Shown here: positions 1 through 5,642 of the stretch, in pieces | Position numbering within the stretch: position 1 is the stretch's first letter | Layout of the letters: each line of letters starts with the position of its first letter | Assembly (NCBI RefSeq): GCF_000143415.4 | Contig: NW_003314720.1 | Span: 1 to 5,642 of the forward strand | Direction: 5' to 3' | DNA: 5,642 bases | From: Selaginella moellendorffii | Lineage: Eukaryota; Plantae; Lycopodiophyta | Translations under genes and position numbers: made by a program | The notes under the pieces: generated by a model | Database searches by the model: none | Told to the model about the DNA's origin: nothing | Seen by the model: only the letters and a program-made list of their open reading frames with translations

Positions 1-2014
1 AGGGCTACCTTTAATAAATGCTGGAACAACCCAAGGAGTTGGGGGGTGTATAAGTGGATGAGTTGGTGTTCTCATCACATGGACAAGTAGTCCTAAGGGG
101 CAAAGGTTGCCCCCAGAGAACAAAATCAAGTGTCGGAGTAACACTTGTGAAAATAGTCCTTTTGAGTAGGACAGGAATGCAAGAAGTGTATTCCAGTGAG
201 CTAGTGCCTCACAAGTAGGACCTTACCGGTCTGTGGATTAACTAAGTCCAAAACTGCTGGATGACTCAAGTAGAGTCAACGGATGGTCCTAAAAGGACTG
301 ATGGAAGCATTTGGACTAAGGTGTGTTGTACCCCACAAAGGATGGGGGGGGATCATAGGATCCAAGGATGAGAACAGAGGGTATCTCATCGATGGCAAAA
401 TGTGCCATGCTAAAGTTATGGGAAAGGTGTTCCCAGAAGAAAACAACTTTGACATAAAGTTGTGTGTGACCTCTATGGTGCAGTGCTAACAGATGGTTGG
501 CATGAGAAAGAGCGGTGTTGGTCTTGGCAAAGACTTAGACACGAAGGGGAAATGTCATAGAGGTAGGCTCGTGGAGCCGATGGTGTGGAGACACCAAATG
601 TGCCAAGGTGTGATACCTTGAGGCTATGTTGGTGGGTTCATGAGAACCCCTTGCCAAAGGAATCCCAATGGAAATGGGAATAGCATAGCCTAAGCTGCAG
701 AGCATGCAATTGGAGTGTGGTGACCCAGATAATGATGGAGGTGTGGAAGCACCAGCAATGAGTTGTAGGACTTGACAACTACAAGGCAACTAAGCAAGAG
801 GTGCAAAATAACTGGTTACACGGGTAGAAGGTAGCTACCCAAGACTTCTTAATAGCATAGGGAAGTTGGATATACCCTTACGGGGGATAAGTTGCTTGTG
901 TTGCGATATAGTAAGTCAATGTCATAAAAGGAAATACTCATTGTCAAGAAAGCCATCATTGGGACACCCGAACACTCTAAAACACCAAAAGGTGGTGTTT
1001 GATGTCGCGAGGACAATGGATAAAGCCCAAGGGACTAAGTCCCTAGCGAATGATGGATAGAAGGTGCTATCCAAATGTCCAAGGTTGCGGAGACAGGAGA
1101 GGACTGTCTACCCGAGTTGGACAAAGCCAAAAATGGAATTTTGGCAAGGCTAGTGATGGGCATGTAAAGGCCCATAAGCAACAATGTAATCCCAGTGTGT
1201 GGGATTATAAGGTGAGCATACCCGGATTGAGGAACCACTCCCTAGGCTATTGGGTAGGTTCATCCCTAAGAATACTTGCTAAAGCATGATAGAAAGTGCA
1301 AAGCTATCCTCCTGGTCTGGAGGAGAATGACCAAAGGAAAGGTGTGAAGCCAAAAAGCAAGAAGTAAGGGGATAGAACCGAACCGTAGGAATCAAAGGGC
1401 ATAACCAAGGTTGGTTATGCCAGCTGGGAGTGGAGAATCAAGTGGGGGCTCGAGGGTGTTGCCGCTAGCAACCGTGATGCCATGGAGAGTCTAAGTTATG
1501 GAATTGTCCATGTTAGACTATGTGGCATTTGGAAGGCTTGCAAAAAAGGGAGGCCTTAGCAAGCTGAGGGACAGAGTTCCTTCAAGGTTCCCAAAGACGA
1601 TTCTAGGTAGCTTAGTACCTAGAAAGGCCAAGTGTAAATGGTTCATGGAACGCGCGAAATCAAAGTGGCGCAGCAGAAGCGTGGTCTTGAAGCTTGCCAT
1701 GAGGCAAAGCTATCAAGGTTAGGGAAGTAGTTCCCGAGTGTTCAAAGAGAGGGCTTTGAACGAAAGTCGATGGTCAAGGACCTTCACGCTTATGCAGGAA
1801 CCATGTTACAGTGGTCGGAGGACTTGCCAAGCGAGATTGGCACGTCGGGGGAACAAATACCCTAGTTGAAGGTGATAACTTCAAAAAGGGTGGGCCATGG
1901 GGCCGAGCATGGAAGAGTCCATGCATGATCACAGACATGTCAAGTGAGAGGATTTGGCAGTGTGGAGGAACTAGGTTCCTAAGCTGTGATCTGTAGCGTG
2001 CTTTAAAAATAAGT

Positions 2015-2026
2015 TGGTGCACCGGC
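2015..2026 (+). other. Candidate primer-binding site complementary to the 3' end of tRNA-Gly(GCC)
   Basis: TGGTGCACCGGC begins with TGG (anti-CCA). It matches 11/12 of the reverse complement of the plant tRNA-Gly(GCC) 3' end as I recall it (TGGTGCACCAGC), and the mismatch would be a G-U pair. It follows an unpaired AT-rich linker (ctttaaaaataag, 2001-2013). Confidence 0.35.
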
Positions 2027-2081
2027 GTGGGGAGTCACGCCAGGCATCTTGTGTGATGCCGTCCGTAGATGCATATACGGA

Positions 2082-2136
2082 GGTTGGGTTCGAGTCCCGA
2101 CCCTCTAGTGCTTGGGTTCGAGTCCCAAATCACTAG
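2082..2136 (+). other. Two tandem tRNA T-arm-like hairpins (Pol III B-box consensus GGTTCGAGTCC twice)
   Basis: The 15-mer ttgggttcgagtccc occurs at 2084-2098 and 2112-2126. Folds: ggttggg-TTCGAGT-cccgacc (2082-2102) and ctagtg-c-ttggg-TTCGAGT-cccaa-at-cactag (2105-2136). Confidence 0.75.
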
Positions 2137-2434
2137 GGCGTGGTGATGGTTTGGAATATGAGGACACTCATATTTCGGTGGTCATGGACTCTCAGTGGGG
2201 AGACTGGTTTGGGCACACCGCCAAGCGAGGGATGCCTCGGAGTCGTGATGCACGGTTAGATTGCTTAGTGTGAAAGCTCAGCACATCTAACTTGAACGCT
2301 TTGGTGCAAGTGGCACCAAGGTCGTGGTGAGTGAGATGGGGACACCTAATCTCAGTTGCTATGAACCCTTGGCCGTAAGGGCTGGCTTGGGTGCACCGCC
2401 AAGTGTGGGGGATGCCCCCGGGGTTATAGTCAAC
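2136..2434 (+). repeat. Diverged direct duplication (offset about 180 nt), each copy a GACA-loop hairpin plus a four-way junction
   Basis: Shared anchors cgtggtga, ggacac, ctggYttgggYRcaccgccaag and ggatgcc. Copy 1 about 2136-2249, copy 2 about 2320-2434. Confidence 0.8.
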
Positions 2435-3447
2435 AACTTGGAGGTCTAGAAGACCAAGTACCTCTTGGCAACTCTGTTAAGGTGCCAAGGTGAGATCACT
2501 ATGCGATCTTATGGCCAGATAAGGACAAGGTCCTTGGTTGGCTAAGGAATGAAGTTCCTGGTTCAAAATGTTGAAATTGAACTGTTTAAGGTGGTGTGGC
2601 TTGGTCGTGATGACCAAGTGGGAAGAGCACCTAAGGGAAATAAACTATGTCCGTGCGATGGCATAGTGAGTCCGAGGAAAGTAGTCTCTATAAAAGACCC
2701 ATGGGAGGGTCACGAAGTTGGGCCGTGGATAGAGCCCATAGCAGAAGATGCTAAAGAGACGTACTAGGGGTGAACATCCTCCGGACTTGGCAAAGAAGAG
2801 TCTTTGCTATGGAACCGAAACAATACCTCAAGGAGGGAGGTAGAGATTCGATGTTGCTTGGTGCAACAATCAACGGATAGGAGCAAAAGATGAGTGGCCA
2901 AGATAGGGCCGTGGAATCCCTTGGAAGGAATCCAAGTGACAAAGTTAGGCGAGGAACACTAATGTGTTGGACACTAACAAGTTGCGGGAAAGGAAGTGTG
3001 TTTCCAAGGAGGGATTCCGAAATGCTCCGATTTGGCGAAAGTGGAAGCTCCAAGGGAGGGAGCGGTAAGGTAGCCAAATGATAGGGCCATGAACAGCCCT
3101 AGCACAAAGCATGATAATTGGAACTTTGGCACGAAATAGAAGAGAGGATGATGGTGCCCTCGAGTAGAGAACTTCCTAGGATGGGAAGTGGAGTTGCACA
3201 AAAGGTGCAAGGCAAGGTGTCGGAGACACCTAGGAAATTGACTCCAAGAAGTCAAAATTCAAAGTTCCAAAGTGCAAAGGCTATATCGATGGAAATTGAG
3301 ACTACTCGAGAAGGAGTAGTGGGATTGACTTAGAGAAGGGTCTCTAAGAGGTTTAGCGAGAACTAAACAAATAAAAGGAGAGAACCACTATATGTGGTCC
3401 AATCAATCTCTAAGTTGGAGAGACTACCCTCCTTAGAGGATATGCAA

Positions 3448-3536
3448 AAGGCATGGTGAGCCTTCAATGTCCAACCATTGACGAATATGGAGAAGGCATG
3501 GTGAGCCTTCAATGTCACACCATTGACAAATATTGG
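3448..3536 (+). repeat. 45-bp tandem duplication (2 copies), each copy holding two hairpins
   Basis: aaggcatggtgagccttcaatgtcCAaccattgacGaatatgg starts at 3448 and aaggcatggtgagccttcaatgtcACaccattgacAaatattgg starts at 3493. Confidence 0.95.
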
Positions 3537-3877
3537 CTACGCGCCAAGGATGGAAATGGTAACACATGCAGGTGTTACTTTATAAAATGGTTCACCGTTC
3601 GATGAGGACATCGAACTTCGTCTATGGTTGGTGGAATTGTGAGAACACAAATCCCTAGGCCCCAAAGTGGAGCCAGAAGGGCGCCACATGGTAGTGGCCG
3701 AAGTGAGAGCCAAATGAGTGTAACGCGTTTGGACCAAAAGCTCCGACTTGAAAAGTCAAGAGCGGGAGTGGAACTCCCAACGAAGTGCTCGAGGAACAAG
3801 CACGAAGCGAGCAAAAGGCGAGGCTCCAAAAAGGGACCCAAAAGGACCAACACATGACACGTGGGAGTGTCCGAGAT

Positions 3878-4144
3878 GGACCCGAGTTGGAGTCCAAAGT
3901 GGAGTCCGAGATGGACCCGAGTTGGAGTCCGAAGTGGAGTCTAAGATGGACCCGAGTTGGAGTCCGAAGTGGAGTCCGAGATGGACCCGAGATGGAGTCC
4001 GAGGTGGACCCGAGATGGACCCGAAATGGAGTCCGAGATGGAGTCCGAGATGGACCCGAGATGGAGTCCGAGATGGAGTCCGAGATGGACCCGAGATGGA
4101 CCCGAGATGGAGTCCGAGATGGAGTCCGAGATGGAGTCTGAAGT
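3878..4144. repeat. Minisatellite of 23 units: nine 11-mers (GGACCCGAGWT) and fourteen 12-mers (GGAGTCCGARRT), with a 35-bp higher-order period
   Basis: Parsed unit by unit. 11-mers start at 3878, 3913, 3948, 3983, 4006, 4017, 4052, 4087 and 4098. 9x11 + 14x12 = 267 bp. Confidence 0.97.
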
Positions 4145-4145
4145 C

Positions 4146-4171
4146 GAGACCGAGACCGGGACCGAGACCGG

Positions 4172-4213
<42 letters not shown>

Positions 4214-4307
4214 GATCGGGACCGAGGCCGAGGCCGAGACCGAGCCCGAGCCCGAGTCCGAGTCCGAATCCGAGTCCGAGTCTGAGTCCGAGTCCGAGTC
4301 CGAGTCC
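4146..4307. repeat. Hexamer microsatellite, 27 units of GAGNCC grading from GAGACC through GAGGCC/GAGCCC to GAGTCC
   Basis: 162 bp in strict 6-bp register. Mostly GAGACC/GGGACC 4146-4223, GAGGCC x2 4224-4235, GAGACC 4236-4241, GAGCCC x2 4242-4253, GAGTCC-type x9 4254-4307. Confidence 0.97.
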
Positions 4308-4383
4308 AGAGCCTGAGAGGGTGAAAGCCCAAAGCGTTCGTCTCCCAGACCCTGGGGGGTTTGGTGAGCTCCAAAAGTATAGT

Positions 4384-4393
4384 AGGGGGAGGA
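4384..4393 (+). other. Candidate polypurine tract followed by TG (possible 3' LTR start at 4395)
   Basis: agggggagga-c-TGcagtgg has a G5 core typical of plant LTR-element PPTs. Weak on its own, because the + strand is purine-rich everywhere. Confidence 0.25.
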
Positions 4394-4403
4394 CTGCAGT
4401 GGA

Positions 4404-4441
4404 GCCAGTTTGGCCAGGAAAGGCCAGTTTGGCCCAGGAAG
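4404..4441 (+). repeat. 19-bp tandem duplication, each unit contributing a GGCC-stem hairpin with an AGGAA-containing loop
   Basis: gccagtttggccaggaaag 4404-4422 and gccagtttggcccaggaag 4423-4441. Hairpins at 4411-4426 and 4429-4446. Confidence 0.85.
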
Positions 4442-5642
4442 GCCGGACCCAGTGTTGGGTGATGAGCTGCCCACTGGGAAGTCCAAGACTAGAGTGAACA
4501 CGGACCGACAAGCGGGGTAGCTTGGTGAAGTGTTCAAGAACCGGCTCTAGTTCCCCCGGGAGATCGACTGGCCGATGCTCCCAGTCCAAGTGTGGGTGGT
4601 ACTACCTACTTGGATACCTGGTGTGGCTCAACGGAACCCGCTCTAAGCCCATGGCTAGAGCACCCAAGGGCAGAAGGCGAGGAGAGTACCCAGGTGGCTC
4701 GCGTAAGGCCACGGTGTTCCGAAATGTTGTCCCAAAGGCCCAGACTGTGGAAAGGAAGAGGAGCAGTCCTCTGGGGTAGTGACCAAGGACACAGTCATGT
4801 GGTGAGGAAGTCCCAGAGGACCGTGGGACTTAGTGGTCGGGCCTGTGGGTCTCGATCCAGTGGCAGTGTTGGCAAACACGGCCAGGGGCAGAAAGGGACT
4901 TAGTGGGGACTGACAGAGGGATATTGGGGAAGGCTATTCCCCTTGTCGGTGGGCATCCTAAGGATGCTAAGGAGTGGATCTGAGATGACCACTCACGGAT
5001 GGTTTGCCTAGTCTTGGAGAGCCAAGACGGTGATGCAAGTGGTATTGGACTACCAGTGTGGCAAAGGTGATTGGGCATGGCCTTAGCGTAACGGGCTGCT
5101 ATGTCGGTGGTACCTTTGAGTGTCGGTCATGGGATCGGACACGTGGAGCACTTGGACCAAGTGCAAATGTTGAGTGGCATGGATGCTATTCTCGGGGCTA
5201 GCAAGTCCCAAGTCCTGGATTGGACTTATGGAGGTTGTGAATGAGACTCCTCCAAGTGGTCAGAGGTGTGGTTAAGTGACTAAAGTAGAATGGAAAATTT
5301 AGTCTCTTACAACTTGGTGGCTCTGCAACTTGGCTGAGGATAGTGATGTCCAACTTAGTTGTTTGTAGTTGAGATGTTGGTACCTATACTATAGCTTTGT
5401 TTAAGTGGAGGTTGTGTACCGATATGAGTCCATCTCGTAGTCTTCACTTTAGTTTCGACTAAGTGTTGATTACGCATAGTTAGCCTCTTCAAGGCATGCT
5501 CAGAGCCGTTGGCTAAATGTATTGGTGAGCTTATTGTGGTTGAGTTGGATTTGAGTGGTCATTTGGTTTGTGCTTGTCTATGACTTTTATCTCATACCGG
5601 AGTAACACGTTTATGTTGGACAAGTGTATGACTCGATGACGT

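Follow-up and report, generated by a model that had tools for sequence, protein, structure and literature searches.

A predicted, duplicated four-way-junction RNA module, probably under selection, in the non-coding internal region of a likely LTR retrotransposon

How LTR retrotransposons choose their own RNA for packaging is described as poorly known, for Ty1 and others, in the available part of a 2012 account (PMC3592414). In Rous sarcoma virus, the minimal packaging signal comprises the O3 stem and three stem-loops, 82 nt in all, and its structure counts more than its sequence, according to the accessible portions of two papers (PMC7599994, PMC5035971). For non-coding internal domains, conserved structure has been reported without a defined motif in the available sections of a further paper (PMC7215508). 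A literature search, at the level of titles and abstract openings, returned no description of a module such as the one below in a plant retrotransposon.

Here, we analyze a compact motif of 100 nt that stands out through its internal duplication and through the variants seen across thousands of copies, and for which both the strand and the molecule, RNA, could be resolved. It lies in a stretch of DNA of 5,642 nucleotides (the window, numbered from its first letter) that belongs to a very high-copy LTR retrotransposon whose host is likely a plant. An initial annotation, made from the letters alone, had proposed a duplicated, tRNA-sized cloverleaf with compensatory changes between its copies.

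A gene-free, hairpin-dense region next to an inferred LTR

On the plus strand, positions 1-3718 form an ORF-free, hairpin-dense internal region that is open at the left window end. No frame lying wholly within it exceeds 115 codons, and none of the 16 frames tested (0/16) reached the Pfam cut-off; the lack of coding capacity thus described applies to the 3,718 + 331 internal bases that fall within the window. Folding in 150-nt steps gave a z score of -2 or lower in 33 of 48 cases, and beyond position 4351 in only 1 of 16. Perfect hairpins of at least 6 bp numbered 31 and 38 in the two halves of the internal region, compared to about 7 each in 60 shuffles, and 12 in the LTR, compared to 5.6 in shuffles, which amounts to an excess of about fivefold and about twofold, respectively. 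No common loop motif was enriched among 70 hairpins (RGAG, P 0.11). The plus strand of 1-3718 is purine-biased (60%), with purine-rich unpaired bases (1,204 of 1,664), and the structured region extends to the left of the window, judged by loose ends before position 2. We also observed a 45-nt repeat in two copies with one hairpin per copy (3440-3533), as well as near-perfect palindromes at 1398-1421 (24 nt) and 3559-3578 (20 nt).

Of the 2,800,581 contigs of run X1, 210,594 match the window, pointing to a eukaryotic repeat of very high, dispersed copy number, and all 30 window bins were covered by X5, a set of only 1.3 million letters. Summed depth, which is a rough guide only, was 0.6-1.8 million over 1-3591 versus 2.7-4.3 million over most of 3781-5292. 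This two- to threefold depth, the TGTAA...TTACA termini and variable loose ends behind 5311 indicate an LTR at 3719-5311 on the plus strand (about 1,593 bp), the one LTR that the window carries. Beyond 5311, contigs run off into unrelated letters (agreement 0.37); the left end at 3719, for which a TG motif and the depth step make up the evidence, is less firm than the right one, and purines account for 11 of the 15 bases preceding it, where a polypurine tract would stand.

A primer-binding-site-like stretch and a multi-copy leader follow on the plus strand at 5312-5642, covered in X1 and X5. Behind 5318, other family copies read ATCGGAGC..., which, placed after the LTR end, presumably fits a plant initiator-Met primer site, and the window's own site starts alike and then diverges. 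Taken together with the CG/CHG-type transitions among the variants, the fit to this primer site suggests a plant host. The same LTR end precedes at least two different primer-site types. Since the multi-copy leader lies 3' of it, the LTR seems flanked by two internal regions, and 3719-5311 seems to be the internal LTR of a tandem or recombinant arrangement.

In one X4 contig (record 9), position 5313 is fused directly to 1838, and the match then continues as far as 3355 with 21 differences; X4 has no cover over 1-1701. This contig is a short derivative retaining both modules, which stand about 315 nt downstream of the LTR joint, near the 5' end of its internal region. A motif resembling an LTR end plus primer site occurs on the plus strand at 1806-1820, 18 nt before the joint at 1838 (1 match, 0 in 200 shuffles, for a pattern chosen post hoc); it may mark an old boundary, in which case the long form would be a composite of two elements. 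The derivative also carries a 26-nt A-rich insertion within an A-rich loop, at window position 2006. Another X4 contig matches only the last 240 LTR bases (5072-5311), with its own TGTAAC start just before, and is possibly a short-LTR relative sharing the 3' end.

Within the LTR, a nested tandem array of 6-, 11-, 12- and 35-nt units at 3869-4307 folds strongly (z down to -7.3), and long ORFs over 3655-4601 were rejected as genes, being read-throughs of the tandem array. In X24, the sole run recorded as RNA (1,382 million letters, about 12 in 100 of the run), depth over the modules was 0-0.79, and the family therefore looks silent in that sample. Most of the 252 X24 RNA reads lie in the array, and their divergence at about 4049 and about 4346 suggests that they come from a related family. 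Runs X4, X18 and X19, guessed to be RNA, were not counted as transcripts.

Searches outside the window gave no homologue of the module: a pattern scan of IMG/VR returned 5 loci matching the motif only, the JGI metagenomes 2 loci in unrelated gene-like sequence, and the GTDB genomes 1 locus, all attributed to chance, and phage records contained no match to it. Covering viral, metagenome, prokaryote and phage collections, these searches say little on the module's range. The copy number, the LTR anatomy and the empty homologue searches led us to reject a large ncRNA of phage, bacterial or organellar origin. As for a hammerhead ribozyme, the mark of retrozymes, there was no Rfam match, and a hammerhead core pattern had 0 matches on either strand. 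The features of the element, known here from a partial copy, agree with an LTR retrotransposon of the LARD-like or long-UTR kind.

Two copies of a four-way-junction module

Module copy 1 occupies 2139-2254 on the plus strand and comprises a leader 8-mer (2139-2146), a GACA hairpin (2153-2176) and a closing stem (2178-2192/2239-2253, with bulges G2187 and G2250) around three inner helices (2193-2206, 2207-2226 and 2227-2238), which meet in a four-way junction with 0 unpaired bases. The hairpin, the closing stem with bulged G2187, the three helices and the closed junction came out exactly as first drawn, in both the minimum free energy (MFE) and the centroid structure. Three extra pairs, 2178-2180/2251-2253, lie beyond the bulged G2250; they are absent from the initial annotation and mirror outer pairs of copy 2. 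Folded alone, 2153-2249 reaches -40.4 kcal/mol (z -3.58), and 2153-2254 has a z of -4.17, with 0 of 200 shuffles as stable. The fold is retained in most contexts, the closing-stem probability being 0.77-0.96 in 5 of 6 and about 0.5 in the sixth, and is lost when 1950-2700 is folded. Pairing with the leader can be drawn for copy 1, yet its probability was 0.00 in 6/6 contexts. We discarded a candidate pseudoknot of the CACCG loop with 2176-2180, since the latter positions lengthen the closing stem.

Copy 2 (2323-2434, plus strand) has the same parts: the leader 8-mer (2323-2330), a GACA hairpin (2332-2354), a closing stem (2355-2369/2420-2434) and inner helices at 2370-2384, 2385-2404 and 2407-2419 around an imperfect junction. 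Folded alone, 2332-2434 adopts this structure as both MFE and centroid, at -46.2 kcal/mol (z -2.77). The helices and the four-way fold are those originally proposed, but the closing stem has two bulges (near 2364 and at U2430) instead of one, 3-4 junction bases are unpaired, and for the last helix the MFE takes a 5-bp stem capped by an AUG loop, which beats the 4-bp GAUG alternative by 2.0 kcal/mol. In context, a rival helix (2323-2330/2356-2363) is preferred, with a probability of 0.78-0.99 wherever the leader 8-mer is present; the outer closing stem drops to 0.00-0.20 in 6/6 contexts containing 2323-2330, and the inner junction ranges over 0.12-0.90 depending on the context with the leader 8-mer. 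The three two-sided changes within the outer closing stem show that pairing there was maintained earlier on; copy 2 is drifting, or else both states matter. The copy 2 loop contains a self-complementary GGTGCACC at 2390-2397 (-9.5 kcal/mol). This palindrome is found in copy 2 only, without a counterpart in copy 1, and is removed by T2392C in 43% of depth, which casts doubt on a conserved kissing loop.

Directly upstream of copy 1, a 28-nt tandem repeat at 2081-2139 (plus strand) forms two tandem hairpins with a 7-base UUCGAGU loop (z -3.62; 2 matches versus 0.01 expected), which we take to resemble tRNA T-arms or Pol III B-boxes. Two spacer hairpins fill 2254-2322 (plus strand) between the copies (z -4.47, 0 of 200 shuffles). 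The prediction that the modules are not tRNAs was borne out: ARAGORN found none, no Rfam family matched over the modules at E up to 1, and the D and T arm consensus and an acceptor/CCA end are not present in them; with Rfam, 2 weak matches (E 0.45 and 0.65) came up at other places in the window. The reverse strands of both modules fold worse (z -1.57 and -1.78), and with DNA parameters the junction forms on neither strand.

Pairing between the copies and across the family

With an alignment score of 57.5, the duplication lies well outside what chance would give: 2,000 dinucleotide shuffles averaged 1.4 and peaked at 33.5, and 39.5 was the highest value among 3,532 other positions of the window. 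Two copies were found, as had been claimed, but the duplication starts earlier than described, at the identical 8-mer that leads each of them. A covariance model of the two copies, suggested earlier as a check, could be built and found no third copy in the window or in the 8 loci searched, its next-best matches being a partial one at E 0.0099 (in L007, a locus picked by the same motif) and one at E 0.074 (4754-4860).

To compare base pairs, we registered the helices outward from the loops and the junction, the outer registers being set by structure across indels, and left out one copy 1 pair at each of two helix ends without counterpart as well as the extra pairs of copy 2. Among the 36 matched pairs, 19 are unchanged, 7 are changed on one side and still paired, 10 are changed on both sides and 0 are broken, a zero that depends partly on the register, since the latter was chosen by structure. 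Both compensatory examples named at the outset (gAgg/ccTc versus gGgg/ccCc and acTc/gAgt versus acCc/gGgt) are real. As a null, the same 27 substitutions were dealt randomly over paired positions of the same base: 9.5 (copy 1 to 2) or 11.0 (copy 2 to 1) broken pairs are expected, and no deal among 100,000-200,000 gave fewer than 2. When the comparison is restricted to the 19 pairs of the gap-free core, P is 0.12 in one direction and 0.002 in the other. Between the copies, which differ at 27/72 paired positions, the leader 8-mer, the GACA and GAUG loops and the CACCG loop end do not change.

Variants among family copies were examined against a structure fixed beforehand from the window alone. 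Among the 40 listed variants (out of 66 over 2140-2445), 32 fall inside the modules, and 5 break a pair versus 11.7 expected (P 0.0013); the same listed variants, read on the minus strand, produce 11 breaks versus 12.1 (P 0.35). The plus-strand P stays below 0.05 unless at least 8 of the 10 further X1 places capable of breaking a pair (15 places lie beyond those listed) do so. A stricter count of 28 listed variants, confined to X1 at 2% or more within the coordinates of the initial annotation and leaving out 3 of lower frequency, gave 3 breaks versus 9.65 expected, or versus 8.24 with CG/CHG context fixed (P 0.0024); two of the 3 left out break pairs, both of them copy 2 pairs in one X19 contig.

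Individual variants were phased only through shared depth within single contigs. One base pair varies at both of its positions, through A2228G (6.5% of depth, 84 contigs) and through T2237C (5.7%, 83 contigs), and a single X11 contig has these two changes at equal depth; T2237C is one of the 5 listed pair-breakers and is compensated by A2228G on its partner. When this couple is counted together, the X1 changes A>G (all 4) and T>C (all 4) leave no pair broken. G>A is listed at 1 of 35 guanines paired to C versus 9 of 34 guanines that are unpaired or in G.U pairs. Two variants speak against the protection of pairs: A2172T, at 31% of depth, disrupts a pair of the hairpin, barring a matching change on the partner base, and G2206A (3.7%) breaks its pair as listed. 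The orientation of the LTR and of the primer site indicates that the plus strand is the genomic RNA strand.

In summary, the earlier proposal of selection on structure is supported by the comparison of the copies and independently by the family variants, and the effect is specific to the plus strand and to RNA. Judged by predicted folds and pairing statistics, the module structure is very probably real and selected in RNA.

Possible roles and comparison with known systems

In a gene-free retrotransposon region, selection on RNA shape acts during transcription, export, packaging or reverse transcription. Among the roles first suggested, packaging or another genomic-RNA role appears plausible, since the modules lie in a hairpin-rich non-coding region of a high-copy LTR retrotransposon, while a translation role is less so because no ORF is nearby. 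We tentatively propose, with somewhat less than even confidence, that the modules are part of a signal for Gag recognition and packaging of the genomic RNA. A local duplication would have arisen, and each round of replication would filter both copies for paired stems, often via G.U. The closed junction would offer its fixed loops (GACA, CACCG and GAUG) together with exposed guanines as contacts for the nucleocapsid part of Gag; this Gag would be provided either in cis or by an autonomous partner, and the neighbouring short hairpins may compact the RNA and add weaker sites. In favour of packaging are the likeness in shape to the Rous sarcoma virus signal, the retention of both modules by the short derivative at about 315 nt from its LTR joint, and loop bases that persist as stems change. 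The position in the window speaks against packaging: a packaging signal usually stands just after the primer site, whereas here any upstream primer site is over 2 kb away and the LTR follows 1.3 kb downstream.

It is possible, if on the unlikely side, that selection acts instead on the overall folding of the genomic RNA, favouring compaction and short helices that avoid long double-stranded stretches, with the four-way topology an inherited detail without a role of its own. Structure runs through all 3.7 kb, copy 2 changes its fold in context, and the junction domains alone have only modest stability compared with shuffles (z -1.53 and -1.79). Listed variants over 1-3718 point the same way, with 23 of 30 at unpaired positions versus 13.4 expected and 2 breaks versus 6.9, a count that is biased since a private change can unpair its own site, as for 3 of the 23. 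Such selection would not need loops and a leader 8-mer to stay identical amid so many differing paired positions, and in 5 scanned frames the modules are the only two recurring tight four-way junctions.

Rather unlikely, in our estimate, is a duplicated element for nuclear export or RNA stability, through whose binding of a host factor a long unspliced non-coding RNA could exit the nucleus or escape decay. The same structural evidence applies to it, including the loop sequences retained between the copies, and a duplicated element 1.3 kb before the LTR is reminiscent of Rous sarcoma virus, with its direct-repeat elements, and of the constitutive transport element, as far as the accessible text describes them (PMC5035971). 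On the other side, the modules come early in the internal region of the short X4 derivative, close to the 5' end, and our literature search found no plant retrotransposon export element of this form.

We regard as distinctly unlikely a more specific form of the packaging proposal, in which the twin four-way junctions behind the T-loop hairpins would be a packaging domain and the leader 8-mer would compete with the closing stem in a two-state switch, open for export and closed for Gag capture, with dimers formed through the GUGCAC loop of copy 2. The zero probability of leader pairing for copy 1 in all six contexts weakens the switch. If this reading were true, the gene-free element would owe its enormous copy number to out-competing its helper for Gag.

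A neutral origin, with symmetric methylation decay and repair of short inverted DNA repeats mimicking compensation, is improbable. Transitions do make up most changes, paired G-C positions are often CG/CHG on both arms, and 7 of the 10 double changes swap G-C and A-U in the same orientation. The other 3 require transversions; moreover, decay would hit both strands alike, yet at G-C pairs C>T is listed for 6 of 11 CG/CHG cytosines and G>A for 1 of 6 guanines in those contexts, the minus strand is unprotected, and the junction is not formed in DNA. Least probable of all is that the modules mimic tRNAs or give rise to small RNAs, excised from the element or transcribed from it, with the aid of the upstream B-box-like hairpins: the cloverleaf size and shape and the two UUCGAGU-loop hairpins point that way, against the blank ARAGORN and Rfam results, the missing T loop, D loop and CCA end, and the near-zero depth in X24.

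The packaging proposal, and the element that carries the modules, can be set beside several described systems. LARDs (large retrotransposon derivatives) are close in kind: the available part of PMC7215508 describes an LTR element with conserved RNA structure and a long internal domain coding for no protein, which resembles the part of the element inside the window, and the conserved RNA secondary structure of the internal domain that defines them is found in the window element. A duplicated four-way-junction module is not among the features that this part describes, and the original LARD description may show comparable folds. In Retand elements, 2.9-6.6 kb separate pol from the 3' LTR according to the accessible text of PMC11963269, which matches the length seen here; they differ in their antisense ORFs, mostly TRP28, and in LTRs of 315-1,194 bp in that same text, whereas the LTR here is about 1.6 kb and 1-3718 holds no such antisense ORFs or TRP28, given the frame limit and the Pfam result for 16 frames above.

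With the packaging signal of Rous sarcoma virus, as its partly available descriptions present it, the modules share size and topology, both predicted here, firmly for copy 1 and in a context-dependent way for copy 2. The likeness is one of shape, and a sequence relationship is not expected. The viral signal occurs once, within the 5' leader, and nucleocapsid binds its linker bases; the module of the window occurs twice, and copy 1 is linker-free. That leader position is unlike the place of the modules in the window and like their place in the X4 contig. Dispersed packaging signals of RNA viruses consist of many short stem-loops along the RNA, which resembles this element, but they share a recognition motif in the accessible text (PMC6281560), and none is enriched in the element's loops. 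The four-armed fold of 70-80 nt is common to the modules and to tRNAs and tRNA-like structures, from which the modules differ in lacking the D and T consensus.

In conclusion, the module offers a small foldable target for probing and binding, and its family is a ready covariation data set. Compared with these known systems, it is a real, selected RNA motif, new in its detail, within a known kind of element.
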